IMG/VR virus record: IMGVR_UViG_2875703104_000003
DNA from: a virus
Lineage: Duplodnaviria; Heunggongvirae; Uroviricota; Caudoviricetes
Reading direction: 5' to 3' (one strand)
Length of the DNA stretch: 22,908 nt
Below the pieces are notes generated by a model. It saw nothing but the letters and a program-made list of their open reading frames with translations, had not been told where the DNA came from and made no database searches. Positions 3,806 to 15,881 of the stretch are shown here, one piece after another. Numbering within the stretch: position 1 is the stretch's first letter; each line of letters opens with the position of its first letter. Made by a program: the position numbers and the translations under genes.

Positions 3806-4570
3806 TCAATCTCCATTGGTATCAATGTTTACAGCCTGACAAGACTCTTTGAGCACCCAGTCAATAGCGTCTTTCCATGCCTCTGTTTCGACTGGTGGAT
3901 TTTCACGCTTAACCTGTTCATAGAAGCGCACTGCTTTAACCAGTCCTTCCGGTACTACTGGTGATGGCTGTTTAGCTTCTAAATCAGCAATTCTGTCAAC
4001 CACGGCATCGACAGCATCTGAAAAGCCGAACCAGTTGCTCCACTCCGGCTCATCCCCGGTTGCTGCAAAGTACATATCTGCTAAAGCAGATTCAGCATGG
4101 TCACGCTCGTTAATGAGTTGCTCTTCGCTTTTCTCCAGTTCAGCAATACGCTTACCCCCATCCGAGATAACACCTTCGTAATACTCACGCTGCTCGTTGA
4201 GTTTTGATTTTGTCTCCTCAAGCTCAACTCTCAGCTTCCCAACAGTAAGAGCAATATCCTCGTTCTCCTGGTCGCGGCGTTTTATGTATTGCTGGTTTCT
4301 TTCCCGTTCATCCAGCAGTGCCAGCACAGTAGCCGGATTGGCTGCGGCGATGAATTCAGCATTGGCCTGCTGTTCCATTTGGAAATCTTCATCGAAACCG
4401 CTTTCTGGATGCGCTCCTTCAATTCTGCAAATGGGAATATATCCAGCAACTTCACGATGAATTAGCGCATAATCACCATCAAATCGGCTCTCTCCATATT
4501 CGAGCGACCACTCACCACACGTTGCTTTTTCTGCCGCTTCACGCAGTGCCTGATAGTTAATTTCGCTCAC
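3806..4570 (-). CDS. ea22: Ead/Ea22-like protein
   Basis: 254 aa. N-terminus 'MSEINYQALREAAE' and the coiled-coil-like central block 'LLDERERNQQYIKRRDQENEDIALTVGKLRVELE' match lambda Ea22 from memory. GTG start overlaps the stop of the upstream gene (GTGA). Confidence 0.75.
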   Translation of the reverse strand: MSEINYQALREAAEKATCGEWSLEYGESRFDGDYALIHREVAGYIPICRIEGAHPESGFDEDFQMEQQANAEFIAAANPATVLALLDERERNQQYIKRRDQENEDIALTVGKLRVELEETKSKLNEQREYYEGVISDGGKRIAELEKSEEQLINERDHAESALADMYFAATGDEPEWSNWFGFSDAVDAVVDRIADLEAKQPSPVVPEGLVKAVRFYEQVKRENPPVETEAWKDAIDWVLKESCQAVNIDTNGD

Positions 4571-4788
4571 TTCGAACCTCTCTGTTTACTGATAAGCTCC
4601 AGATCCTCCTGGCAACTTGCACAAGTCCGACAACCCTGAACGACCAGGCGTCTTCGTTCATCTATGGGATCGCCACACTCACAACAATGAGTGGCGGATA
4701 TAGTCTGGTAGTTCAGACGACGCATTTTTATTGCTGTATTGCGCTGTAATTCTTCAATTTCTGATGCTGAATCAATGATGTCCGCCAT
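4567..4788 (-). CDS. TraR/DksA-family C4 zinc-finger protein
   Basis: 73 aa with CxxC...(17)...CxxC ('CCECGDPIDERRRLVVQGCRTCASC'), typical of phage TraR-like proteins. Confidence 0.7.
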   Translation of the reverse strand: MADIIDSASEIEELQRNTAIKMRRLNYQTISATHCCECGDPIDERRRLVVQGCRTCASCQEDLELISKQRGSK

Positions 4789-4886
4789 CTTTCATTAATC
4801 CCTGAATTGTTGGTTAATACGCTTGAGGGTGAATGCGAATAATAAAAAAGGAGCCTGTAGCTCCCTGATGATTTTGCTTTTCATGT

Positions 4887-5168
4887 TCACCGTTCCTTAA
4901 AGACGCCGTTTAACATGCCGATCGCCAGGCTTAAATGAGTCGGTGTGAATCCCATCAGCGTTACCGTTTCGCGGTGCTTCTTTAGTACGCTACGGCAAAT
5001 GTCATCGACGTTTTTATCCGGAAACTGCTGTCTGGCTTTTTTGATTTCAGAATTAGCCTGACGGGCAATGCTGCGAAGGGCGTTTTCTTGCTGAGGTGTC
5101 ACTGAACAAGCCCCATGTCGGCAAGCATAAGCACACAGAATATGAAGCCCGCTGCCAGAAAAATGCAT
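4887..5168 (-). CDS. Hypothetical protein in the lambda orf60a position; start uncertain
   Basis: ORF track 93 aa from ATG 5168. Alternative: GTG start at 5100-5102 (71 aa, 'MTPQQENALRSIARQ...') translationally coupled to an upstream 27-aa ORF. Position corresponds to lambda orf60a. Confidence 0.45.
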   Translation of the reverse strand: MHFSGSGLHILCAYACRHGACSVTPQQENALRSIARQANSEIKKARQQFPDKNVDDICRSVLKKHRETVTLMGFTPTHLSLAIGMLNGVFKER

Positions 5169-5178
5169 TCAGTGGTTG

Positions 5179-5370
5179 TCATACCTGGTCTCTCTCATCT
5201 GCTTCTGCTTTCGCCACCATCATTTCCAGCTTTTGTGAAAGGGATGTGGCTAACGTATGAAATTCTTCGTCTGTTTCTACTGGTATTGGCACAAACCTGA
5301 CTCCAATTTGAGCAAGGCTATGTGCCATCTCAATACTCGTTCTTAACTCAACAGGAGATGCTTTGTGCAT
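5179..5370 (-). CDS. Hypothetical protein in the lambda orf63 position
   Basis: 63 aa ORF with ATG start, between the TraR-like gene and exo as in lambda. Confidence 0.5.
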   Translation of the reverse strand: MHKASPVELRTSIEMAHSLAQIGVRFVPIPVETDEEFHTLATSLSQKLEMMVAKAEADERDQV

Positions 5371-5531
5371 ACCGCCTCCCGTTTATTATTTATCTTCTCA
5401 GCCAGCCGCTGTGCTTTCAGTGGATTTCTGATAACAGAAAGGCCGGGAAATACCCAGCCTCGCTTTGTAACGGAGTAGACGAAAGTGATCGCGCCTACCC
5501 GGATATTATCGTGAGGATGCGTCATCGCCAT
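5343..5531 (-). CDS. Hypothetical protein in the lambda orf61 position
   Basis: 62 aa ORF overlapping the exo 3' end and the orf63-like start, which is the arrangement seen in lambda. Confidence 0.4.
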
Positions 5532-6202
5532 TGCTCCCCAAATACAAAACTAATTTCAGCCAGTGCCTCGTCCATTTTTTCGATGAACTCCGGCACCATC
5601 TCGTCAAAACTCGCCATGTACTTTTCATCCCGCTCAACCACGACATAATGCAGTCCTTCACGCTTCATACGCGGGTCATAGTTGGCAAAGTACCAGGCAT
5701 CTTTTCGCGTCACCCACATGCTGTACTGCACCTGGGCCATGTAAGCCGATTTTATGGCCTCGAAACCACCGAGCCGGAACTTCATGAAATCCCGGGAGGT
5801 AAACGGGCATTTCAGCTCAAGGCCGTTGCCGTCACTGCATAAACCATCGGGAGAGCAGGCGGTGCGCATACTTTCGTCGCGATAGATGATCGGGGATTCA
5901 GTAACATTCACGCCGGAAGTAAACTCAAACAGGGCTCTGGCGTCGTTCTCGTACTGTTTTCCCCAAGCCAGCGCCTTAGCGTTAACTTCCGGAGCCACAC
6001 CGGTGCAAACCTCAGCAAGCAGGGTGTGGAAGTAGGACATTTTCATGTCAGGCCATTTCTTTCCGGAGCGGGGTTTTGCTATCACGTTGTGAACTTCTGA
6101 AGCGGTGATGACGCCGAGCCGTAATTTGTGCCATGCATCATCCCCCTGTTCGACAGCTCTCACGTCGATCCCGGTACGCTGCAGGATAATGTCCGGTGTC
6201 AT
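5522..6202 (-). CDS. exo: Lambda exonuclease (Red alpha)
   Basis: 226 aa, '[50 protein letters not shown]...', essentially colinear with lambda Exo from memory. Confidence 0.95.
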
Positions 6203-6984
6203 GCTGCCACCTTCTGCTCAGTGGCTTTCTGTTTCAGGAATCCAAGAGCTTTCACTGCTTCGGCCTGTGTCAGTTCTGACGATGCGCGAATGTCGCGGCG
6301 AAATATCTGGGAACAGAGCGGCAATAAGTCGTCATCCCATGTTTTATCCAGGGCGATCAGCAGAGTGTTAATCTCCTGCATGGTTTCATCGTTAACCGGA
6401 GTGATGTCGCGTTCCGGCTGACGTTCTGCAGTGTATGCGGTATTTTCGACAATGCGCTCGGCTTCATCCTTGTCATAGATACCAGCAAATCCGAAGGCGA
6501 GACGGGCACACTGAATCATGGCTTTATGCCGTAACATCCGTTTGGGATGCGACTGCCACGGCCCCGTGATTTCTCTGCCTTCGCGGGTTTTGAATGGTTC
6601 GCGGCGGCATTCATCCATCCACTCGGTAACGCAGATCGGATGATTGCGGTCTTTGCGGTAAATCCGGCATGTACATGATTCATTGTCCTGCTCAAAGTCC
6701 ATACCATCAAACTGCTGGTTTTCATTGATGATGCGGGACCAGCCATCAACGCCCACCACCGGAACAATGCCGTTCTGCTTATCAGGGAAGGCGTAAATTT
6801 CTTTCGTCCACGGATTAAGGCCGTACTGGTTGGCGACGATCAACAATGCGATGAACTGCGCATCGCTGGCATCACCTTTAAATGCCGTCTGGCGAAGAGT
6901 GGTGATCAGTTCCTGTGGGTCGACAGAATCCATGCCGACACGTTCAGCCAGCTTCCCTGCCAGCGTTGCGAGTGCTGTACTCAT
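6199..6984 (-). CDS. bet: Bet single-strand annealing protein (Red beta)
   Basis: 261 aa, '[66 protein letters not shown]...' matches lambda Bet. Overlaps the exo start by 4 nt. Confidence 0.95.
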
Positions 6985-6989
6985 CCGTT

Positions 6990-7286
6990 TTATACCTCTG
7001 AATCAATATCAGCCTGATGGTGAGCAATGGTTTCAACTATGTACCGGATGTGTTCTGCCATGCGCTCCTGAAACTCAACATCGTCATCAAACGCACGGGT
7101 AATGGCTTTTTTGCTGGCCCCGTGGCGTTGTAAATGATCGATGCATAGCGATTCAAACAGGTGCTGGGGCAGGCCTTTTTCCATGTCGTCTGCCAGTTCT
7201 GCCTCTTTCTCTTCACGGGCGATCTGCTGGTAGTGACGCGCCCAGCTCTGAGCCTCAAGACGATCCTGAATGTAATAAGCGTTCAT
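6990..7286 (-). CDS. gam: Gam, RecBCD inhibitor (short GamS form only)
   Basis: 98 aa, '[60 protein letters not shown]...' matches lambda GamS. The in-frame upstream region hits a TAA after 18 codons with no start codon, so there is no GamL extension. Confidence 0.9.
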
Positions 7287-7361
7287 GGCTGAACTCCTGA
7301 AAATGGCTGTGAAAATATCGCCCGCGAAATGCCAGGCTGATTAGGAAAACAGGAAAGGGGG

Positions 7362-7505
7362 TTAGTGAATGCTTTTGCTTGATCTCAGTTTCAGTATTAA
7401 TATCCATTTTTTATAAGCGTCGACGGCCTCACGAAACATCTTTTCATCGCCAATAAAAGTGGCGATAGTGAATTTAGTCTGGATAGCCATAATTGTTTGA
7501 TCCAT
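7362..7505 (-). CDS. kil: Kil host-killing protein (FtsZ inhibitor)
   Basis: Internal ATG of the 89-aa track ORF gives 47 aa '[47 protein letters not shown]', matching lambda Kil. Overlaps the cIII 3' end as in lambda. Confidence 0.8.
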
Positions 7506-7638
7506 TTTTTGGGACTCCTGGCTGATTAAGTATGTCGATAAGGCGTTTCCATCCGTCACGTAATTTACGGGTGATTCGTTCAAGTAAAGATTCGGAAGGG
7601 CAGCCAGCAACAGGCCACCCTGCAATGGCATATTGCAT
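7474..7638 (-). CDS. cIII: cIII (FtsH inhibitor, stabilises cII)
   Basis: Hand translation of the minus strand gives 54 aa '[54 protein letters not shown]', matching lambda cIII. Below the 60-aa cutoff of the ORF track. Confidence 0.8.
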   Translation of the reverse strand: MQYAIAGWPVAGCPSESLLERITRKLRDGWKRLIDILNQPGVPKNGSNNYGYPD

Positions 7639-7710
7639 GGTGTGCTCCTTATTTATACATAACGAAAAACGCCTCGAGTGAAGCGTAATTGGTATGCGGT
7701 AACGCCGCGC

Positions 7711-8079
7711 TCAGGCGGCCTTGATAGTCATATCATCTGAATCAAATATTCCTGATGTATCGATATCGGTAATTCTTATTCCTTCACTACCATCCATTGG
7801 AGGCCATCCTTCCTGACCATTTCCATCATTCCAGTCGAACTCACACACAACACCATATGCATTTAAGTCGCTTGAAATTGCTATAAGCAGAGCATGTTGC
7901 GCCAGCATGATTAATACAGCATTTAATACAGAGCCGTGTTTATTGAGTCGGTATTCAGAGTCTGACCAGAAATTATTAATCTGGTGAAGTTTTTCCTCTG
8001 TCATTACGTCATGGTCAATTTCAATTTCTATTGATGCTTTCCAGTCGTAATCAATGATGTATTTTTTGATGTTTGACAT
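7711..8079 (-). CDS. ea10: Ea10-like protein
   Basis: 122 aa, 'MSNIKKYIIDYDWKASIEIEIDHDVMTEEKLHQINNFWSDSEYRL...'; same position and size as lambda ea10 (from memory). Confidence 0.75.
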   Translation of the reverse strand: MSNIKKYIIDYDWKASIEIEIDHDVMTEEKLHQINNFWSDSEYRLNKHGSVLNAVLIMLAQHALLIAISSDLNAYGVVCEFDWNDGNGQEGWPPMDGSEGIRITDIDTSGIFDSDDMTIKAA

Positions 8080-8096
8080 CTATTCATATCCTCATA

Positions 8097-8125
8097 GATA
8101 AAAAATCGCCCTCACACTGGAGGGC
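8097..8125 (-). terminator. Candidate rho-independent terminator in the left operon (tL2-like position)
   Basis: Inverted repeat GCCCTC-ACACTG-GAGGGC at 8108..8125; on the minus strand it is followed by a T-run (plus-strand AAAAAAT at 8100-8106). Lies between ral and ea10. Confidence 0.4.
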
Positions 8126-8261
8126 AAAGAAGATTTCCAATAATCAGAACAAGTCGGCTCCTGTTTAGTTACGAGCGACATTGCTCCGTGTATTCACTCG
8201 TTGGAATGAATACACAGTGCAGTGTTTATTCTGTTATTTATGCCAAAAATAAAGGCCACTA

Positions 8262-8462
8262 TCAGGCAGCTTTGTTGTTCTGTTTACCAAGTTCTCTGGC
8301 AATCATTGCCGTCGTTCGTATTGCCCATTTATCGACATATTTCCCATCTTCCATTACAGGAAACATTTCTTCAGGCTTAACCATGCATTCCGATTGCAGC
8401 TTGCATCCATTGCATCGTTTGAATTGTCCACACCATTGATTTGTATCAATAGTCGTAGTCAT
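8262..8462 (-). CDS. ral: Ral restriction-alleviation protein
   Basis: 66 aa, 'MTTTIDTNQWCGQFKRCNGCKLQSECMVKPEEMFPVMEDGKYVDKWAIRTTAMIARELGKQNNKAA', matches lambda Ral. Confidence 0.85.
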   Translation of the reverse strand: MTTTIDTNQWCGQFKRCNGCKLQSECMVKPEEMFPVMEDGKYVDKWAIRTTAMIARELGKQNNKAA

Positions 8463-8532
8463 ACGGATAGTCCTGGTATTGTTCCATCACATCTTGAGGA
8501 TGCTCTTCGAACTCTTCAAATTCTTCTTCCAT
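8446..8532 (-). CDS. Small acidic ORF (28 aa) overlapping the ral start (lambda orf28 position)
   Basis: Hand translation: 'MEEEFEEFEEHPQDVMEQYQDYPYDYDY'. Too short for the ORF track; called on position only. Confidence 0.3.
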   Translation of the reverse strand: MEEEFEEFEEHPQDVMEQYQDYPYDYDY

Positions 8533-8675
8533 ATATCACCTTAAATAGTGGATTGCGGTAGTAAAGATTGTGCCTGTCTTTTAACCACATCAGGCTCGGT
8601 GGTTCTCGTGTACCCCTACAACGAGAAATCGGATAAACTCTATTCACCCCTACAGAGAGCAAAAGAGAAACGCCG

Positions 8676-9257
8676 ATGAACAACTCATGGTGGCAGGAAC
8701 TAATGCATTTTTTCCTGCAAGGAATGACACTTAAACAGTTGATTCATATGCTAATCATCCTGATCATATTGATTATTGTTATGCCGGTAAGCGTAAAAGA
8801 ATGGATAAACCTGCATAGTCCAGAAATCCTTCCTCATTACTGGATGTATTACATCCTGTTGTTTTGCGTTAGCTATGTGCTTAACGGCGTTGTTAATTCC
8901 GCTTATCACGCTGTGACTGAAAGAATTGAGGTATTCGCTGCTCAGAAGCGCAAATCTAAAGAAGAAAAATATGTGCAAGATTTGTTTGATTCGTTAACTC
9001 TTGGAGAAAGAGCGTATTTGGCATTCGCTGTAGCCGCTAATAACCAGCTACAAACGGAAAAGGGCGCTCATGAATCAATTTCATTGCTCAAAAAAGGACT
9101 CCTCGTTCGAAGGCCTCCTGCTGTTGGATATCCTGATACCGACCGTTTCGTTATCCCTGAAAGCTATAGACATGAGTGCTACATTAGGTTTGCCGGGAAG
9201 GCAGACAGCCTTATGGATGAACTTATCGCTCAGGATAAGCATGGCAAAAACAAGTAA
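8676..9257 (+). CDS. sieB: SieB superinfection exclusion protein
   Basis: 193 aa, 'MNNSWWQELMHFFLQGMTLKQLIHMLIILIILIIVMPVSVKEW...' with an N-terminal hydrophobic segment; matches lambda SieB. Opposite orientation to the left operon, as in lambda. Confidence 0.85.
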   Translation: MNNSWWQELMHFFLQGMTLKQLIHMLIILIILIIVMPVSVKEWINLHSPEILPHYWMYYILLFCVSYVLNGVVNSAYHAVTERIEVFAAQKRKSKEEKYVQDLFDSLTLGERAYLAFAVAANNQLQTEKGAHESISLLKKGLLVRRPPAVGYPDTDRFVIPESYRHECYIRFAGKADSLMDELIAQDKHGKNK

Positions 9258-9644: not shown

Positions 9645-9690
9645 TGGCTTTTCAGCCACGTAGTCGAGAGTCGACGTTGTTTAAAGAGCC
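9645..9690 (-). promoter_or_regulatory. Candidate nutL (boxA-like plus boxB hairpin)
   Basis: Minus-strand reading: boxA-like GCTCTTTAA (plus 9682..9690) and a boxB-like hairpin UGGCU-GAAA-AGCCA (plus 9645..9658), between pL and N. Same architecture and spacing as the proposed nutR. Confidence 0.45.
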
Positions 9691-9699
9691 TGCCAGTCT

Positions 9700-9830
9700 G
9701 TTCCATTTGGCTTCCAGCGTCCTGCTGACGGTTAAATAGTACGATATGTACTTTACAAGATCAATACAATTTGTTGTAAGTTGGCGTGGTTTTTTATAAC
9801 GCTTTGTATTTAATAGTGTTGTTTTTTAGC
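9700..9830 (-). promoter_or_regulatory. pL / OL operator region (approximate)
   Basis: Lies between the terminator after the rex-slot cassette and nutL. Contains palindrome AGTAC-GATAT-GTACT at 9738..9752 and TTGTAT/AGTAC half-site motifs that recur in the cI-cro intergenic region. Promoter elements not resolved. Confidence 0.35.
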
Positions 9831-9950
9831 GTGGATGTATTGCCTCGGCGATGTAAGGAGAGATCAGAATTGCGTGGTTTAGTGGGTTGCATCTATTTAT
9901 TTTTCAATAAATATAATTGGTTATGTGTTTTTAGGTGGGCGAACGTGAGG

Positions 9951-9977
9951 CAAAGAAAACCCGGCGCTGAGGCCGGG
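9951..9977 (-). terminator. Rho-independent terminator ending the cI operon (tImm-like)
   Basis: Hairpin CCCGGC-GCTGAG-GCCGGG at 9960..9977, 6 nt after the stop of the 250-aa gene; on the minus strand it is followed by TTTTCTTTG. Confidence 0.5.
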
Positions 9978-9982
9978 TTGTA

Positions 9983-10735
9983 TTATGCTGCAAGTCTCTT
10001 AACCCAAGTCTCTCTTTTGGAGAATGGTAGAACTTGGCTTGATTCATGGAAGAGTAAGGAGAGTTGTTGCATTTGATCACCAATTGCTTCGCTGTCTATA
10101 ACAACAAATCTGTTGTTATACTCCTCACTTGAAGCTTTAAGATCAATTAGTTTCCCAAGCAATGAGTAAGCACTATTCCAGCTTCCTCCGTGTTTCACGC
10201 TTGATGTAAAAACGTATTTAGGTATGTCGGTTTTTATTGTTACAGGGACGGTAATTTGATGTCCACTCAAGCCATATACGTTTTCACGAAGAGAAAGTGC
10301 GTCTCTAAGCTCTGTGTGATATAGATAATCAATAACCATACTTTCAAACTTTTCAGCTTGAACTGGCTGATACCAGTCTAACGACAAAGTTGATGCGAGT
10401 ATACCAGCTCTAATTATGTTCGATGTAATCGCACCGACATCCTTTTCTGTTGCCCAAGCAATGATTTCTCCTCGAGCATTGAGTTCTGCGCCTTCTTTAA
10501 GCAGTAATTGTCGTATCTCATCAAGTCGTTTTTTGGTAAGCGAGATCCCTCTTGCCTCCATATTCATTAAGGCATCGCATCTGTCACTAACTAAATACCT
10601 ACCATTGACTTCACGGATAAAGGCACCGACATGCTCTCCATCATCACAGTAAGTGAATGGACTGATAATTCTCAAGGTCTTGCCTATTGGATGGCATTCG
10701 AAACCTAGTTGTGAGATCACTGTTGAGCACATCAT
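9983..10735 (-). CDS. Uncharacterized protein B of the rex-slot cassette (250 aa)
   Basis: ATG at 10733-10735 overlaps the stop of the upstream 185-aa gene (ATGA), so translation is probably coupled. No motif I recognise (no P-loop, no clear TM helices). Visibly AT-rich. Confidence 0.7.
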   Translation of the reverse strand: MMCSTVISQLGFECHPIGKTLRIISPFTYCDDGEHVGAFIREVNGRYLVSDRCDALMNMEARGISLTKKRLDEIRQLLLKEGAELNARGEIIAWATEKDVGAITSNIIRAGILASTLSLDWYQPVQAEKFESMVIDYLYHTELRDALSLRENVYGLSGHQITVPVTIKTDIPKYVFTSSVKHGGSWNSAYSLLGKLIDLKASSEEYNNRFVVIDSEAIGDQMQQLSLLFHESSQVLPFSKRETWVKRLAA

Positions 10736-11289
10736 ATTCCAAACCCCATTTGCCCCGACTCATCTTCAAGCGGTAAAGGTATTCTCCCAGAGTAAGTTAT
10801 GTTCAGATGTTTACAGAAGTAATTCCAATACCCTACCAGGTCATCTGGGTTTATGTCATCTTCGATTGGAAACGCTATTCTATCACTATAGTATCCAGCT
10901 TCTTCATAGTATACATGGTAGTGAGCACCGTAAATGATATCTTGGTACTTCGGATGATCGACCTTGTAACTATTCGTGTGTTTGTCAAAGTGATAGGTAT
11001 CTACCGCGAAAACCCTCTTGTTATGATAGAAAGCAATAATATTTATTTTAGGGTAAGAAATCGGGTCATCAGGTTCTGAATCCTGATCTGGTTTCCATTT
11101 CAGTTCAAACTTTAGCCCTTGTATAGGTATACAATCCTCATCCAAGGGGATGATATGGGCTTGTAGCCACATATCAGAGCGACTTGGTTTCTGTTTCCAT
11201 TTAACGCCAGAAAAGTTAACTATTTTTTTACAATAAAGTACTTTATCAACTTCTACTTGGCTTGGCTGATAATCATCTATTTTTGCCAA
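10732..11289 (-). CDS. Uncharacterized protein A of the rex-slot cassette (185 aa, start uncertain)
   Basis: Long ORF directly downstream of cI on the same strand. The ORF opens with TTG at 11287-11289, two codons after an in-frame TAA; the first in-frame ATG is at codon 40. Tyr/Asp-rich, no recognisable motif. AT-rich. Confidence 0.65.
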   Translation of the reverse strand: MAKIDDYQPSQVEVDKVLYCKKIVNFSGVKWKQKPSRSDMWLQAHIIPLDEDCIPIQGLKFELKWKPDQDSEPDDPISYPKINIIAFYHNKRVFAVDTYHFDKHTNSYKVDHPKYQDIIYGAHYHVYYEEAGYYSDRIAFPIEDDINPDDLVGYWNYFCKHLNITYSGRIPLPLEDESGQMGFGI

Positions 11290-11328
11290 TGTTTACCGCC
11301 CTGTAAATTGTAGATAAAAGTGGTTTCA

Positions 11329-11988
11329 TCACCCAAACGTCTCTTCAGGCCATTGGCTGGCGATAACTTTCCCCACAACGGAACAACTCTCATTGCATGG
11401 GATCATTGGGTATTGTGGGTTTAGTGGCTGTAGAAACACCTGACCGCTATCCCTGATCAGTTTCTTGAAGGTAAATTCATCACCACCAAGTCTGGCTATG
11501 CAGAAATCGCCGGGCTCAACAGCTTGCTCAGGGTCAACCAGAATTAACATCCCGTCAGGAAAGCTGGGTTTGGAACCTGTTGGTGCGGTCATTGAGTTAC
11601 CTTCAACCTCAAGCCAGAATGCAGAGTCACTGGCTTTTTTGGTTGTGCTTACCAATCTCTCCGCATCGCCTTTGGTAAAGGTTCTGAGTTCTGGAGAGAA
11701 CATCCCAGCCTGAACATGAGAAAAAACAGGGTACTCATATTGTTTTTTAACTGGGGCCGATGAGTATTCGCCAACAGGTGAAAATGTCCCGTCGTGGTTG
11801 AATGATATGTTATCAATACCAAGGTATTTAAACACCACACCAATATCACTAAGAGATGGATGACGAGATCCGCGCAACCAGTGTCCAATCCCACCCTGCG
11901 TCATACCTAGCTCTTCGGCTAACTTCTCTTGAGTTATGCCGAGCTCTTTCATTCTGGATCTAGCCAGTTCATACCATTTCATTTTCAT
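11329..11988 (-). CDS. cI: cI prophage repressor, hybrid (lambda-type C-terminal domain, non-lambda N-terminal DNA-binding domain)
   Basis: C-terminal part from '[28 protein letters not shown]' to '...[13 protein letters not shown]' matches lambda cI, including the Ser/Lys autocleavage region. N-terminal HTH '[38 protein letters not shown]' differs from lambda. Start is ATG 11986-11988 or 11980-11982; the track ORF extends to 12030. Confidence 0.85.
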
Positions 11989-12099
11989 GTCCTTATTATT
12001 ACGCTCTGTACTGGAACCATCCATGCACAATGTGTATTTTTACTTGTATTCGCAAAGTACATATTGTATTTTTTTATTCGTGTTTACTATGGAGGGCAT
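11989..12099. promoter_or_regulatory. OR operators with divergent pRM / pR (cI-cro intergenic region)
   Basis: About 110 bp between divergent cI and cro (about 100 bp in lambda). Three TGTATT repeats at 12033, 12045 and 12065, and the imperfect inverted repeat TACTTGTATTCGCAAAGTA at 12041..12059. Individual operators not resolved. Confidence 0.55.
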
Positions 12100-12315
12100 A
12101 TGAGCAACCTACGAAAATATCGAGAGTCACTGAATATCTCTCAAACAACACTTGCTAAGGCAGTTGGATGCACACAGGGAGCTATCGGACATTGGGAATC
12201 TGGTCGTCGCTTCCCAGACCTTAAAACATGCCGTGCTCTTGTTGCGTGCCTAAACAAGTTAGGCGCAAAAGTCAGTCTTGATGACGTGTTCCCGCCGGAA
12301 CACAAAGCCGCTTAA
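12100..12315 (+). CDS. cro: Cro-like repressor (HTH type)
   Basis: ATG at 12100, 71 aa 'MSNLRKYRESLNISQTTLAKAVGCTQGAIGHWESGRRFPDLKTCRALVACLNKLGAKVSLDDVFPPEHKAA' with a helix-turn-helix. GGAGGG lies only 3 nt upstream of the ATG, an unusually short spacer. First rightward gene opposite cI. Confidence 0.8.
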   Translation: MSNLRKYRESLNISQTTLAKAVGCTQGAIGHWESGRRFPDLKTCRALVACLNKLGAKVSLDDVFPPEHKAA

Positions 12316-12325
12316 TAAGCGGATC

Positions 12326-12371
12326 CGCTCTTTGTAACAACGGACATTCGTCCTACGTCGCTGAAAAGCGA
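12326..12371 (+). promoter_or_regulatory. Candidate nutR (boxA-like CGCTCTTT plus boxB hairpin)
   Basis: boxA-like CGCTCTTT at 12326..12333; hairpin UCGCU-GAAA-AGCGA at 12358..12371, a 5-bp stem with a GAAA loop like lambda boxB. Located between cro and cII. Confidence 0.5.
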
Positions 12372-12400
12372 GTTCCAAGATATCTGACCAACTAAGGCCA

Positions 12401-12418
12401 TATGCGTTTCCACGCATA
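12401..12418 (+). terminator. Candidate tR1-like hairpin
   Basis: Inverted repeat TATGCGT-TTCC-ACGCATA between nutR and cII; the downstream tract is only moderately T-rich, so this may be rho-dependent or not a terminator. Confidence 0.3.
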
Positions 12419-12456
12419 CCTTTCAACTAACTATTCACTATTGGAAATCTTAAGAA

Positions 12457-12753
12457 ATGGAAAGAACAAGTTACAGCAAACTATCACAGCGTGACGTTGA
12501 TCGCGCAGAAACAGATTTACTTATCAATCTGTCAGCTATTACCCAGCGCGGTCTGGCAAAGATGATTGGCTGTCATGAATCGAAGATAAGCAGAACGGAC
12601 TGGAGATTTATTGCTTCGGTCTTGTGTGCTTTCGGAATGGCATCAGACATCAGTCCGATTAGCAGGGCTTTTAAGTATGCGCTTGATGGACTCACCAATA
12701 AAAAACGCCCGGCGGCAACCGAGCGTTCTGAACAAATCCAGATGGAATTCTGA
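12457..12753 (+). CDS. cII: cII-like transcriptional activator (mosaic; lambda-identical C-terminal tail)
   Basis: 98 aa. C-terminal 'TNKKRPAATERSEQIQMEF' matches the lambda cII C-terminus; the N-terminal two thirds differ. Confidence 0.8.
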   Translation: MERTSYSKLSQRDVDRAETDLLINLSAITQRGLAKMIGCHESKISRTDWRFIASVLCAFGMASDISPISRAFKYALDGLTNKKRPAATERSEQIQMEF

Positions 12754-12785
12754 GGTCATTACTGGATCAATCCACAGGAGTCATT

Positions 12786-13685
12786 ATGACAAATACAGCA
12801 AAAATACTCAACTTCTGCAGAGGTAACTTTGCCAAACAGGAGCGTAATGTGGCAGATCTCGATGATGGTTACGCCAGACTATCAAATATGCTGCTTGAGG
12901 CTTATTCAGGCGCAGATCTGACCAAGCGACAGTTTAAAGTGCTGCTTGCCATTCTGCGTAAAACCTATGGATGGAATAAACCAATGGACAGAATCACCGA
13001 TTCTCAACTTAGCGAGATTACAAAGTTACCCGTCAAACGGTGCAATGAAGCCAAGTTAGAACTCGTCAGAATGAATATTATCAAGCAGCAAGGCGGCATG
13101 TTTGGACCAAATAAAAACATCTCAGAATGGTGTATCCCTCAAAACGAGGGAAAATCCCCTAAAACGAGGGATAAAACATCCCTCAAATTGGGGGATTGCT
13201 ATCCCTCAAAACAGGGGGACACAAAAGACACTATTACAAAAGAAAAAAGAAAAGATTATTCGTCAGAGAATTCTGGCGAATCCTCTGACCAGCCAGAAAA
13301 CGACCTTTCTGTGGTGAAACCGGATGCTGCAATTCAGAGCGGCAGCAAGTGGGGGACAGCAGAAGACCTGACCGCCGCAGAATGGATGTTTGACATGGTG
13401 AAGACCATCGCGCCATCAGCCAGAAAACCGAATTTTGCAGGGTGGGCTAACGATATCCGCCTGATGCGTGAACGTGACGGACGTAACCATCGCGACATGT
13501 GTGTACTGTTCCGCTGGGCATGCCAGGACAACTTCTGGTCCGGTAACGTGCTGAGCCCGGCCAAACTCCGCGACAAGTGGACCCAGCTCGAAATCAACCG
13601 TAACAAGCAACAGGCAGGTGTGACAGCCTGCAAACCAAAACTCGACCTGACAAACACTGACTGGATTTACGGGGTGGATTTATGA
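12786..13685 (+). CDS. O: Replication initiator O
   Basis: 299 aa, 'MTNTAKILNFCRGNFAKQERNVADLDDGYARLSNMLLEAYSGADLTKRQFKVLLAILRKTYGWNKPMDRITDSQLSEITKLPVKRCNEAKLELVRMNIIKQQ...' matches lambda O. AGGAG RBS. Confidence 0.95.
   Translation: MTNTAKILNFCRGNFAKQERNVADLDDGYARLSNMLLEAYSGADLTKRQFKVLLAILRKTYGWNKPMDRITDSQLSEITKLPVKRCNEAKLELVRMNIIKQQGGMFGPNKNISEWCIPQNEGKSPKTRDKTSLKLGDCYPSKQGDTKDTITKEKRKDYSSENSGESSDQPENDLSVVKPDAAIQSGSKWGTAEDLTAAEWMFDMVKTIAPSARKPNFAGWANDIRLMRERDGRNHRDMCVLFRWACQDNFWSGNVLSPAKLRDKWTQLEINRNKQQAGVTACKPKLDLTNTDWIYGVDL
13134..13260 (+). repeat. ori-lambda: four iterons plus AT-rich unwinding region inside O
   Basis: Four direct repeats of about 18 bp of the TCCCTCAAAACGAGGGA type at about 13135, 13155, 13179 and 13202, followed by an A-rich stretch (ACAAAAGAAAAAAGAAAAGATTATT). 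Confidence 0.85.
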
Positions 13686-14383
13686 AAAACATCGCCGCAC
13701 AGATGGTTAATTTTGACCGTGAGCAGATGCGTCGGATCGCCAACAACATGCCGGAACAGTACGACGAAAAGCCGCAGGTACAGCAGGTAGCGCAGATCAT
13801 CAACGGTGTGTTCAGCCAGTTACTGGCAACTTTCCCGGCGAGTCTGGCTAACCGTGACCAGAACGAACTGAACGAAATCCGCCGCCAGTGGGTTCTGGCT
13901 TTCCGGGAAAACGGGATCACCACAATGGAACAGGTTAACGCAGGAATGCGCGTAGCCCGTCGGCAGAATCGACCATTTCTGCCATCACCCGGGCAGTTTG
14001 TTGCATGGTGCCGGGAAGAAGCATCCGTTATCGCCGGACTGCCAAACGTCAGCGAGCTGGTTGATATGGTTTACGAGTATTGCCGGAAGCGAGGCCTGTA
14101 TCCGGATGCAGAGTCTTATCCGTGGAAATCGAACGCGCACTACTGGCTGGTTACCAACCTGTACCAGAACATGCGGGCCAATGCGCTGACTGACGCGGAA
14201 TTACGACGCAAGGCTGCCGATGAACTGACCTGTATGACAGCGCGAATTAACCGTGGTGAGACGATACCTGAACCAGTAAAACAACTTCCTGTCATGGGCG
14301 GCAGACCTCTAAATCGTGTTCAGGCGCTGGCGAAGATCGCAGAAATTAAAGCTAAGTTAGGACTGAAAGGAGCAAGTGTATGA
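13682..14383 (+). CDS. P: Replication protein P (DnaB helicase loader)
   Basis: 233 aa, 'MKNIAAQMVNFDREQMRRIANNMPEQYDEKPQVQQVAQIINGVFSQLLATFPASLANRDQNELNEIRRQW...' matches lambda P. Start overlaps the O stop. Confidence 0.95.
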   Translation: MKNIAAQMVNFDREQMRRIANNMPEQYDEKPQVQQVAQIINGVFSQLLATFPASLANRDQNELNEIRRQWVLAFRENGITTMEQVNAGMRVARRQNRPFLPSPGQFVAWCREEASVIAGLPNVSELVDMVYEYCRKRGLYPDAESYPWKSNAHYWLVTNLYQNMRANALTDAELRRKAADELTCMTARINRGETIPEPVKQLPVMGGRPLNRVQALAKIAEIKAKLGLKGASV

Positions 14384-14670
14384 CGGGCAAAGAGGCAATT
14401 ATTCATTACCTGGGGACGCATAATAGCTTCTGTGCGCCGGACGTTGCCGCGCTAACAGGCGCAACAGTAACCAGCATAAATCAGGCCGCGGCTAAAATGG
14501 CACGGGCAGGTCTTCTGGTTATCGAAGGTAAGGTCTGGCGAACGGTGTATTACCGGTTTGCTACCAAGGAAGAACGGGAAGGAAAGATGAGCACGAACCT
14601 GATTTTTAAGGAGTGTCGCCAGAGTGCCACGATGAAACGGATATTGGCGGTATATGGAGTTAAAAGATGA
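14380..14670 (+). CDS. ren: Ren (Rex-exclusion relief)
   Basis: 96 aa, 'MTGKEAIIHYLGTHNSFCAPDVAALTGATVTSINQAAAKMARAGLLVIEGKVWRTVYYRFATKEEREGKMSTNLIFKECRQSATMKRILAVYGVKR' matches lambda Ren. Confidence 0.85.
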   Translation: MTGKEAIIHYLGTHNSFCAPDVAALTGATVTSINQAAAKMARAGLLVIEGKVWRTVYYRFATKEEREGKMSTNLIFKECRQSATMKRILAVYGVKR

Positions 14671-14695
14671 CCATCTACATCACTGAGCTAATAAC

Positions 14696-14727
14696 AGGCC
14701 TGCAGGTAATCGCAGGCCTTTTTATTT
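14696..14727 (+). terminator. Rho-independent terminator (tR2-like) between ren and ninB
   Basis: 8-bp stem AGGCCTGC / GCAGGCCT with loop AGGTAATC, followed by TTTTTATTT. Confidence 0.6.
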
Positions 14728-14743
14728 GGGGGAGAGGGAAGTC

Positions 14744-15184
14744 ATGAAAAAACTAACCTTTGAAATTCGATCTCCGGCACATCAGCAAAACGCTATTCAC
14801 GCAGTACAGCAAATCCTTCCAGACCCAACCAAACCAATCGTAGTAACCATTCAGGAACGCAACCGCAGCTTAGACCAAAACAGGAAGCTATGGGCCTGCT
14901 TAGGTGACGTCTCTCGTCAGGTTGAATGGCATGGTCGCTGGCTGGATGCAGAAAGCTGGAAGTGTGTGTTTACCGCAGCATTAAAGCAGCAGGATGTTGT
15001 TCCTAACCTTGCCGGGAATGGCTTTGTGGTAATAGGCCAGTCAACCAGCAGGATGCGTGTAAGCGAATTTGCGGAGCTATTAGAGCTTATACAGGCATTC
15101 GGTACAGAGCGTGGCGTTAAGTGGTCAGACGAAGCGCGACTGGCTCTCGAATGGAAAGCGCGATGGGGAGATCGGGCTGCATGA
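14744..15184 (+). CDS. ninB: NinB recombination protein
   Basis: ATG at 14744 with GAGGGAAG RBS; 146 aa 'MKKLTFEIRSPAHQQNAIHAVQQILPDPTKPIVVTIQERNRSLDQNRKLWACLGDVSRQVEWHGRWLDAESWKCVF...' matches lambda NinB. Confidence 0.85.
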   Translation: MKKLTFEIRSPAHQQNAIHAVQQILPDPTKPIVVTIQERNRSLDQNRKLWACLGDVSRQVEWHGRWLDAESWKCVFTAALKQQDVVPNLAGNGFVVIGQSTSRMRVSEFAELLELIQAFGTERGVKWSDEARLALEWKARWGDRAA

Positions 15185-15708: not shown

Positions 15709-15881
15709 GACGACAGCGACGAAGCATCACCGACATAATCTGCGAAAACTGCAAATACCTTCCAACGAAACGCTCCAGAAATAAACGCAAGCTAATCCCA
15801 AAAGAATCTGACGTAAAAACCTTCAATTACACAGCCCACCTGTGGGATATCCGGTGGCTAAGATATCGTGCGAGGAAATGA
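15705..15881 (+). CDS. ninE: NinE
   Basis: 58 aa '[58 protein letters not shown]' matches lambda NinE. ATGA overlap with the methyltransferase stop. Confidence 0.85.

Follow-up and report, generated by a model that had tools for sequence, protein, structure and literature searches.

It is textbook knowledge that lambdoid phages are mosaics joined at the boundaries of modules and domains, and a lambda repressor tail domain joined to a different DNA-reading head is a long-known and very common arrangement. The described phages closest to the locus studied here are VT2-Sakai (Sp5), the Stx1-converting phage AP005153 and Stx2 phage II (AP005154), which have the same operator 17-mers and the same hinge joint to a lambda-type C-terminal domain of CI. 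Six operators as well as PR and PRM were previously annotated as putative in AP005153. The co-transfer of cI and cro among lambdoid phages was reported (PMC9836094), and the CI proteins of VT2-Sakai and lambda, 61% identical overall, were grouped together in 'Clade I' (PMC8951638); this figure is an average over a head with 26% and a tail with 99% identity. The lambda imm434 and imm21/DE3 hybrids likewise have a lambda backbone with a replaced immunity block, and, as here, the homology ends on the right within or beside cII. The imm434 and imm21 hybrids have no joint inside cI because the whole gene was replaced; the repressors of 434 and 21 each have a C-terminal domain of their own, with 35% and 42% identity, respectively, to that of this locus. 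DE3 (imm21) resembles this locus in its cII, of the HK022 type to approximately codon 78 and lambda-like in the tail, whereas lambda imm434 retains a complete lambda cII. HK97 is the reciprocal combination, in which lambda-type CI and Cro are joined at the position equivalent to approximately 12325 to an HK022-type cII region, indicating that the same exchange points are in use. HK97 differs in its lambda immunity, its HK022-type cII tail and its P22/HK022-type replication genes.

The window, that is, the whole stretch of 22,908 nucleotides that was analysed, has the same coordinates as PV340572.1 (phage PhiR57_1). Its immunity region was identified, with a probability of about 0.9, as the complete lysis–lysogeny switch of a lambda-like temperate phage of the PhiR57_1/ev207 type, with immunity as in VT2-Sakai and the Stx1/Stx2-II phages. 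The sequence relationships, domain content, joints, operator conservation and prevalence were shown directly, and no result spoke against the identification, several steps of which follow from homology. The CI DNA-binding domain, Cro and the operators were the same as those of the VT2-Sakai/Stx1-phage immunity type. CI and Cro of AP005153 were 100% identical in amino acids, positions 11331–12793 were colinear with that phage at 96.7%, and N/nutL/OL of this immunity type were 93% identical. The locus differed from VT2-Sakai and the Stx1 phages in the cII tail, oop, O and P, which were of the lambda type here and of the HK022 type in theirs, in a small divergent patch at cII codons 3–28 and in the genes of the cI–OL slot. 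The backbone was Lambdavirus-like, whereas these relatives are short-tailed Stx phages. Gene order and switch architecture were the same as in lambda, oop, O, P and ren were approximately 97% identical, and the OL–OR distance was about 2.3 kb compared with 2.4 kb in lambda. Lambda differed in Cro family, operator sequence and spacing, N, sieB and the rex slot. The components of imm-lambda specificity (lambda CI N-terminal domain, PF09048 Cro and lambda operators) were not found in the locus. The flanks at 4522–8655 and 12691–15184 were approximately 97–98% identical to lambda. Hence the mosaic was confirmed as genuine, and the switch as one of ordinary lambda type that was previously known. 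The original prediction was to be abandoned if the cI/cro/cII block proved colinear with a single known immunity type and not mosaic relative to the flanks; the colinearity was found, whereas the block remained mosaic relative to its flanks.

The cII gene sits between cro/nutR and O and matched Phage_CII (PF05269, E=7e-34) over residues 1–92 of 98, so that both profile and synteny were those of a CII activator. Codons 1–78 (12457..12690, plus strand) had 26% amino acid identity to lambda, as opposed to 87–92% for HK022/HK97/21/933W. This non-lambda part of cII represents the widespread HK022/HK97/21/933W allele, which is not specific to one immunity. Codons 79–98 and the stop codon (12691..12753, plus strand) encode LTNKKRPAATERSEQIQMEF, which is the same as in lambda at 20/20 residues, and lambda homology resumed at 12691 and extended through O, P, ren and ninB at approximately 97%. 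Relative to lambda, one nucleotide mismatch was found in the tail (12747) and two in the downstream spacer, giving three over 12691–12793. The identity to the Stx1 phage tail was 74.6% in nucleotides and 60% in amino acids. Both claims that had been made for this gene, a non-lambda N-terminal part and about 20 lambda-like residues at the end, were borne out. The lambda-type oop–O–P replication module has its left edge at the cII joint, between codons 78 and 79. Carriers of Sakai-type immunity differed in the cII tail and replication genes, which were of the HK022 type in the Stx phages and of the lambda type here; another carrier (L013) had a full lambda-type cII. A repeat of the form TTGC-N6-TTGT on the minus strand at 12466–12479, inside cII, was read from the sequence as the probable PRE cII-binding site, which resembles the lambda PRE target.

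A putative antisense RNA of the oop type was placed over the cII tail on the minus strand (approximately 12699..12775) from its promoter, terminator, fold and homology; its ends are presumably those given by homology to lambda oop. This predicted transcript between cII and O would have its own pO-like promoter (12811–12783, minus strand, TTGAGT-17-CATAAT) and its own intrinsic terminator (12729–12702, minus strand), the latter inside the cII 3' end. The calculated fold had an energy of -28.4 kcal/mol (z = -3.4), the region was conserved in all lambdoid references, and the phi80 annotation has an oop homologue at the same position. In the Rfam scan of the whole window, the cIII thermoregulator was the sole match, with neither an oop nor a nut family among the results; therefore, oop was supported via homology, the promoter/terminator scan and folding. 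A tail kept lambda-like in all lambdoid phages by the constraint of oop RNA and the cII degradation tag would require no joint. In agreement with such a constraint, the interval from the cII tail to the O start was conserved in all seven aligned phages, with a mean column identity of 84%, and it encodes a predicted structured antisense RNA. However, two clearly different allelic forms of this interval exist, and they track O-gene type across phages. The lambda form was contiguous here with 2.5 kb of lambda-type O-P-ren-ninB, whereas the Stx1 phage and VT2-Sakai, the closest immunity relatives, carry the HK022-form tail with HK022-type O/P. Conservation explains why crossovers can occur there, not which allele is present. 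Carriers of this immunity did not all share one tail allele regardless of O-gene type; the opposite was observed, and this explanation was rejected as very unlikely. The lambda-type tail is the part of cII antisense to the putative oop RNA, and it travels together with lambda-type O/P.

The C-terminal segment of cI (stop codon and codons 84–219; 11329..11739, minus strand) comprises a lambda-type hinge/cleavage-site region and the S24 autopeptidase/oligomerisation domain. The alignment of 11328–11739 with lambda 37226–37637 was gapless at 93.4% nucleotide identity, and 135 of the 136 amino acids of the domain were identical. This part matched Pfam Peptidase_S24 (E=1.3e-28) and the lambda repressor chains 3bdn and 8gmu in the PDB. 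No variation was seen at Ala94-Gly95, Ser132 or Lys175 when this CI was aligned with lambda CI and its relatives. The S24 domain, the Ser/Lys dyad and the Ala-Gly cleavage site in the linker place CI among the LexA/S24-family repressors, as do its N-terminal HTH domain and its genetic setting, since cI and cro diverge from either side of a multipartite operator and PL has a set of operators of its own. The N-terminal HTH domain and linker (codons 1–83 from ATG 11988; 11740..11988, minus strand) form the immunity-specific part, with a match to Pfam HTH_3 (E=2.1e-10) at residues 25–72 of a 233-aa ORF. This domain was 26% identical to lambda, 100% identical to the Stx1 phage AP005153 and 98.8–100% identical in VT2-Sakai (98.8%), Nil2 and the PA-series Stx2 phages. 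The claimed division of the repressor into a lambda-like C-terminal domain and a non-lambda HTH head was therefore correct. The two parts meet in the hinge between the domains, where the joint precedes the cleavage site by 10 residues. Most CI homologues were 217–221 aa in length and began with MK(M)KW or MNW. The start is given as 12024 in GenBank; 11988 or 11982 appears to be the true start, and the annotation in public records probably needs correction.

The cro gene (12100..12315, plus strand) encodes a 71-aa lytic repressor of the XRE/HTH_3 type (Pfam HTH_3, E=4e-12). The protein was 25% identical to lambda Cro, which matches Pfam PF09048 instead, in accordance with the earlier view that it is of the HTH type and not a lambda Cro. 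It was 100% identical to ORF B58 ('putative cro') of the Stx1 phage, and its PDB matches were 28tn (E=4.5e-17) and P22 C2 (E ~0.009). The following cro–cII spacer (12325..12456, plus strand), with the nutR, tR1 and PRE region, was common to 933W and HK97. Homology to these two phages started at 12325 and homology to HK022 and 21 at 12425–12429; nutR is annotated in 933W at the homologous spacer position. The immunity-specific core is only 11740–12324.

Recombination joints inside cI and cII relative to lambda had been predicted, and sharp breaks were found in both genes. A history free of recombination would involve vertical descent from lambda-like ancestors, with the DNA-binding parts evolving faster under diversifying selection for immunity. 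Such a history agrees with the near-uniform divergence of certain relatives (P0002–P0007), in which N-terminal domains were 77–87% and C-terminal domains 79–85% identical, and with the generally higher variability of phage repressor N-terminal domains. However, in ungapped register the identity collapsed from approximately 93–97% to background within 1–2 bases at 11739/11740 and 12690/12691, and the check for gradual decay across both joints gave a step-like profile. Codon differences from lambda in the cI C-terminal domain were almost all synonymous (26 synonymous and 1 non-synonymous), yet the N-terminal domain retained only 26% identity, and Cro and lambda Cro fell into different Pfam families. 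Moreover, C-terminal domains of the lambda type (79% identity or more) were found on at least three N-terminal classes, with the similarity setting in at one and the same YEYP hinge; the N-terminal domain of the Sakai type, in turn, also occurred with a C-terminal domain of 57–62% identity. Divergence by rate only was refuted because the joints were step-like, and we regard it as scarcely credible.

OR and OL each had three operators, 17-bp sites of the form AAGTAC-N5-GTACTT, and the intervals proposed for them, 11989–12099 and approximately 9700–9830, contained all six. The window contained five matches to AGTAC-N5-GTACT at no more than one mismatch, where 0.38 would be expected (0 of 100 shuffles), and three of the five were in OL/OR. 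No match to lambda operators (TATCACCGC..GGTGATA-like 17-mers) was found even when three mismatches were allowed, which upheld the claim of non-lambda operators. OR3 (11997..12013; TATTAC GCTCT GTACTG) had one mismatch to the core and corresponds to a putative operator in AP005153; its inner half-site positions were invariant across diverged alleles. OR1 (12055..12071; AAGTAC ATATT GTATTT), annotated in AP005153, also had one mismatch to the core and formed an inverted-repeat partnership with OL1. OR2 (12023..12039; ATGCAC AATGT GTATTT), likewise annotated there, was a weak match with three mismatches to the 10-base core and was therefore not significant by sequence alone. An alternative OR2 nearer OR1, at the lambda-like spacing of 24 bp, showed no convincing half-sites by eye. 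The AP005153 assignment was kept because the substitution pattern supports it: in diverged alleles, changes in OR2 were confined to the central spacer. The OL region (9737..9812) matched the three putative operators of AP005153. OL1 (9737–9753) had a perfect core, AGTAC GATAT GTACT, whereas OL2 (9762–9778) and OL3 (9796–9812) were weak matches with three mismatches each to the 10-base core, not significant on sequence alone. Alleles diverged by approximately 6% had 18–22 differences in OR, none of which was at positions 2–6 or 12–16 of the three OR sites, and the four OR differences from AP005153 all lay outside the 17-mers.

The centre-to-centre spacing of the operators was 32 and 26 bp at OR and 25 and 34 bp at OL, compared with 24/23 and 24/20 in lambda. 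Therefore, lambda-like pairwise cooperativity via the common C-terminal domain is an assumption. PR, PL and PRM were all missed by the generic sigma-70 scan. The probable promoter positions were read by eye and agree with the AP005153 annotation. PR is probably overlapped by OR1, with hexamers read by eye as TTGTAT (12044–12049) and TATTTT (12067–12072) separated by a 17-nt spacer, and PL on the minus strand may consist of TTGATC (9763–9758) and TACTAT (9741–9736). Lambda CI was found to bind VT2-Sakai operators in vitro at 3.7–6.4 uM compared with 0.2–3 uM for its own (PMC10742460); this binding is weak, but non-recognition may not be absolute.

The rex slot downstream of cI (9958..11289, minus strand) had lambda-homologous DNA on either side. 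It contained two overlapping genes on the minus strand, 10732–11289 (185 aa) and 9983–10735 (250 aa), and a terminator at 9979–9958. The Pfam matches in the slot were DUF6978 (weak, below cutoff) and DUF1828, and the PADLOC matches were PDC-M24A (weak) and PDC-M24B (E=4.7e-10). Positions 9858–9979 were 90% identical to lambda 35708–35826, just downstream of lambda rexB.

The immunity core was present in 776 of 5426 complete E. coli genomes, approximately 1 in 7. The entire region was found without any difference in phages PhiR57_1, ev207, ev017 and PhiR63_2 and in prophages of ATCC 11775 and other strains. The block 11328–12800, which includes both joints and the start of O, was 100% identical in the unrelated complete genomes ATCC 11775, ESM1.4 and NRZ14408, and in ATCC 11775 this cI-cro-cII-O junction block belongs to a prophage. 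The breakpoints at 11328, 11739, 12325, 12425–32, 12691 and approximately 12793 recurred across hundreds of phage and prophage records. A recent or unique chimera, for example a new phage-specific immunity hybrid from a lambda-like phage and a resident prophage during isolation, is hinted at by the PhiR name, the isolation hosts ECOR13 and MG1655 and the variable cII tails and replication genes among carriers of Sakai-type immunity, but both the cI joint and the entire block refute it, and it is hardly to be believed, as 11328–12800 was also 100% identical in ev207 and ev017, the cI joint was present in every carrier examined and the flanks were 97–98%, not 100%, identical to laboratory lambda. 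The cI–cro block and cII to codon 78 were colinear with a known type; thus, the cI joint is old and fixed, not an event in this phage. The literature search for PhiR57 and ECOR13 found no paper describing the phage, and PMC12315714 was ruled out as its source paper. The sequence is already deposited and annotated, and this type of immunity has been familiar since the genomes of VT2-Sakai and the Stx1 phage; the locus has little weight as a discovery.

A working scheme for the switch was drawn from homology to lambda, on which binding, cooperativity, cleavage, promoter positions and oop function were modelled. Dimers of CI (219 aa from ATG 11988) would bind the three OR and three OL operators through the HTH head. 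With OL and OR 2.3 kb apart, this binding would shut PR and PL, and CI would be made from PRM. The C-terminal domain may provide dimerisation, cooperativity or looping, and RecA-stimulated self-cleavage is predicted at Ala94-Gly95 by the Ser132/Lys175 dyad. Cro would bind the same operators and lead to lytic commitment. Moreover, cII may activate PRE within its own 5' end, and the antisense oop RNA, overlapping approximately the last 18 cII codons, may oppose cII.

From their sequences, neither the DNA-binding head nor Cro nor the operators are of the lambda kind, so heteroimmunity to lambda is the expected phenotype. Whether a phage is heteroimmune can be predicted from its CI head and its Cro and not from the identity of the whole protein. 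A nearly identical C-terminal domain occurs on at least three heads that are unrelated or distant, and lambda-type and Sakai-type prophages are both common in E. coli; it is therefore conceivable, if doubtful, that co-resident heteroimmune repressors form mixed dimers or higher oligomers through the common domain. If true, prophages could influence one another, for instance by a dominant-negative weakening of immunity or through coupled induction thresholds, and the near-purely synonymous divergence of the C-terminal domain and the 32/26 bp operator spacing would deserve attention. The locus is a clean example of lambdoid exchange points at protein-domain and RNA-gene boundaries, namely the CI hinge and the edge of oop and the cII tail, and the true immunity-determining unit is only approximately 585 bp, consisting of the CI head, the operators and cro.

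The immunity region (11329–12753) contained cI (minus strand, stop at 11329; Pfam HTH_3 and Peptidase_S24), cro (12100–12315, plus strand; HTH_3) and cII (12457–12753, plus strand; full-length Phage_CII). Lambdoid N, SieB and two unknown genes were the left neighbours, and O, P and ren lay on the right. Homology to lambda, evaluated via blastn, was confined to six intervals of the window: 4123–4328 (90%), 4522–8655 (97.5%), 9858–9979 (90%), 11328–11739 (93.4%), 12691–15184 (97.3%) and 15712–15878 (94.6%). The C-terminal 136 residues of CI were identical to those of lambda at 135 positions (26 synonymous and one non-synonymous codon differences), whereas the N-terminal 70 residues were only 26% identical. 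Similarly, cII residues 79–98 were identical to lambda at 20 of 20 positions, and residues 1–78 at 26%. In ungapped register, identity to lambda collapsed over one to two bases at 11739/11740 and 12690/12691, which are therefore true joints without a gradient. The cI joint fell in the inter-domain linker and preceded the Ala-Gly cleavage site by 10 residues. Cro matched HTH_3 (E = 4e-12), whereas lambda Cro matched its own family, PF09048. The best solved structure for Cro was PDB 28tn, a "lambda repressor-like protein" (82 aa, E = 4.5e-17), and the P22 C2 repressor matched far less well (E about 0.009). The original prediction had placed a lambda-type CI C-terminal domain and cII tail beside a foreign CI head, a Cro of HTH type and a foreign cII N-terminal part, with recombination junctions inside cI and cII. 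Alignment to lambda located these junctions, and both the observation and its interpretation were correct.

The foreign part is the VT2-Sakai/Stx1-phage immunity type within a lambda-like backbone. The interval 11331–12793 was gapless and colinear with the Stx1-converting phage AP005153 and with VT2-Sakai (96.4–96.7%), and the amino acid sequences of CI and Cro were 100% identical to those of AP005153. The CI head occurred at 98.8–100% in VT2-Sakai, Nil2, Stx2 phage II, 2851, 1717, YYZ-2008 and the PA-series Stx2 phages. The CI of VT2-Sakai-type (Eru3) phages has been grouped with lambda CI as "Clade I" at 61% overall identity (PMC8951638), a value that averages over a 26% head and a 99% tail. 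We found the immunity-specific core (11740–12324) in 776 of 5426 complete E. coli genomes, among them ATCC 11775, ATCC 25922, UTI89 and O157:H7 strains. Moreover, the block 11328–12800 with both joints was 100% identical in several complete E. coli genomes. GenBank PV340572.1 (Escherichia phage PhiR57_1) has the same coordinates as the window, and phages ev207, ev017 and PhiR63_2 were 100% identical to it over the region. The joint within cI is old and has become fixed in an immunity type that is very common. The body of cII is a common allele, and the region as a whole is already known, its sequence having been deposited and annotated. The arrangement resembles a natural "lambda imm-Sakai", comparable to lambda imm434 and lambda imm21, which were made in the laboratory; the reciprocal arrangement occurs naturally in HK97, in which lambda immunity is paired with an HK022-type cII.

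The operators were likewise not those of lambda, as had been predicted: no lambda-type operator was found in the window even with three mismatches allowed. The best inverted repeat joining both control regions paired 9734–9754 with 12054–12074. A search for AGTAC-N5-GTACT with at most one mismatch returned five sites in the window (0.38 expected; 0 of 100 shuffles). Among them were OL1 (9737–9753, perfect), OR1 (12055–12071) and OR3 (11997–12013). The other two (2268–2282 and 3942–3956) lay in the left-arm EaA-like and Ea22-like genes and may be chance occurrences or extra CI sites. OR2 (12023–12039), OL2 (9762–9778) and OL3 (9796–9812) each had three mismatches in the 10-base core and were not significant from sequence alone. 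The coordinates of the six 17-bp "putative operators" of AP005153, when transferred, coincided with all six sites. In E. coli prophage alleles with a core about 6% diverged, none of the 18–22 OR differences fell at positions 2–6 or 12–16 of the three OR sites; they were confined to the outermost bases and central spacer of the sites and to the stretches separating them. The six VT2-Sakai operators have been taken as known, and lambda CI bound them weakly (3.7–6.4 uM, versus 0.2–3 uM for its own sites; PMC10742460). Centre to centre, the sites were 32 and 26 bp apart at OR and 25 and 34 bp apart at OL, unlike in lambda (24/23 and 24/20), even though the two cooperativity domains share 99% identity. 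The tight pair was OR2–OR3 at OR and OL1–OL2 at OL.

The longest cI ORF begins at 12030, and the public annotations (PV340572.1, AP005153) put the cI start at 12024; such a start would extend the coding region across OR3 and OR2. According to the AP005153 annotation, the PRM −35 lies at 12018–12023 and the −10 within 11985–12000. With this placement and OR3 and OR2 at 11997–12039, the annotated start is therefore upstream of the promoter of cI itself. Translation probably begins instead at ATG 11988 or 11982 (219 or 217 aa), in agreement with most CI homologues (217–221 aa), and the cI mRNA would then probably be leaderless or nearly so, as in lambda.

We infer that the region works as a standard lambda-type bistable switch. 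By homology, CI dimers would repress PR and PL through the Sakai-type head on OR and OL, which are 2.3 kb apart (2.4 kb in lambda). The lambda-type tail would mediate dimerisation, higher-order OR–OL contacts and RecA-stimulated autocleavage; Ala94-Gly95, Ser132 and Lys175 were all present in the alignment. Cro would occupy the same sites as CI, cII would activate PRE via a TTGC-N6-TTGT repeat within its own 5′ end (12466–12479, minus strand), and oop would counteract cII.

The non-lambda part of cII was 87–92% identical to the cII of HK022, HK97, 21 (DE3) and 933W, and is not specific to the immunity type. The E. coli prophage L013 (NZ_CP178659.1, 2590–3989) combined the same cI/cro type with a complete cII of lambda type (294 nt) and different replication genes, which shows that the immunity core and the cII alleles assort independently. 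Against the Stx1 phage, 12 of the 13 mismatches in codons 1–78 fell in 12463–12538 (codons 3–28), which looks like a further micro-mosaic segment, and 12539–12688 had none. The putative PRE repeat was unchanged within this patch. The cII tail had two allelic forms that followed the replication genes: the lambda/21 form paired with lambda-type O, and in HK022, HK97 and the Stx1 phage the HK022 form accompanied an HK022-type O. The exception was 933W, with an HK022-form tail and a lambda-like O start. On the minus strand, a promoter-like site (12811–12783) and an intrinsic terminator (12729–12702) bounded a predicted RNA of about 77 nt that folded well (z = −3.4) and matches the lambda oop antisense RNA. 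In phi80, an oop homologue is annotated at the same position. Lambda homology started exactly at the T-run of the oop terminator; hence, the cII-tail joint is best read as the left edge of an oop–O–P replication module. The C-terminal tail of lambda cII is a flexible FtsH degradation signal, and both joints would therefore coincide with protein-domain boundaries.

In the left flank, the slot of lambda rexA–rexB (9983–11289, minus strand) held two overlapping unknown genes and was followed by a terminator (9979–9958), and was flanked by DNA homologous to lambda, namely the 3′ end of cI on one side and the 9858–9979 terminator region on the other. The 185-aa product weakly matched Pfam DUF6978 (below cutoff) and PADLOC PDC-M24A, and the 250-aa product matched DUF1828 and PDC-M24B (E = 4.7e-10). 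In lysogens the two are probably transcribed together with cI, and they may be a candidate prophage-borne defence pair. The nutL-side leader (9663–9737) was 88% identical to phage 21 (DE3), and N was 93% identical to the Stx1-phage gene described in the AP005153 record as HK97 N-like. The sieB gene (193 aa, within 8656–9257) was without DNA homology to lambda sieB, and lambda homology stopped just short of it at 8655. The sole Rfam match in the window was the lambda cIII thermoregulator element (RF01804, 88.5 bits, 7593–7651, minus strand).

Matches covering only part of the region, from both the phage and the E. coli collection, ended repeatedly at shared breakpoints, namely 11328 (cI stop), 11739 (CI hinge), 12325 (just after cro), 12425–12432 (just before cII), 12691 (cII codon 79), about 12749 and about 12793 (start of O). 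Among 120 database relatives, the lambda-type C-terminal domain (at least 79% identical) was joined to several head types: the Sakai type, a second type related at about 50–57% (Salmonella, Enterobacter, Kluyvera), the lambda type (67–99%) and an unrelated "MHEIIGERIKSL" head. For every head type, similarity started at the same (Y/F)-x-Y-P motif. The converse combination, an approximately 80% Sakai-type head on a 57–62% identical C-terminal domain, also occurred. In one E. coli repressor with the "MHEIIGERIKSL" head (P0107), the C-terminal domain was divergent through the cleavage-site region and then identical to lambda, a pattern that indicates a second intragenic joint within the C-terminal half. 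The shared C-terminal domain may allow heteroimmune repressors to interact in polylysogens, and the non-lambda operator spacing would bear on such an interaction.
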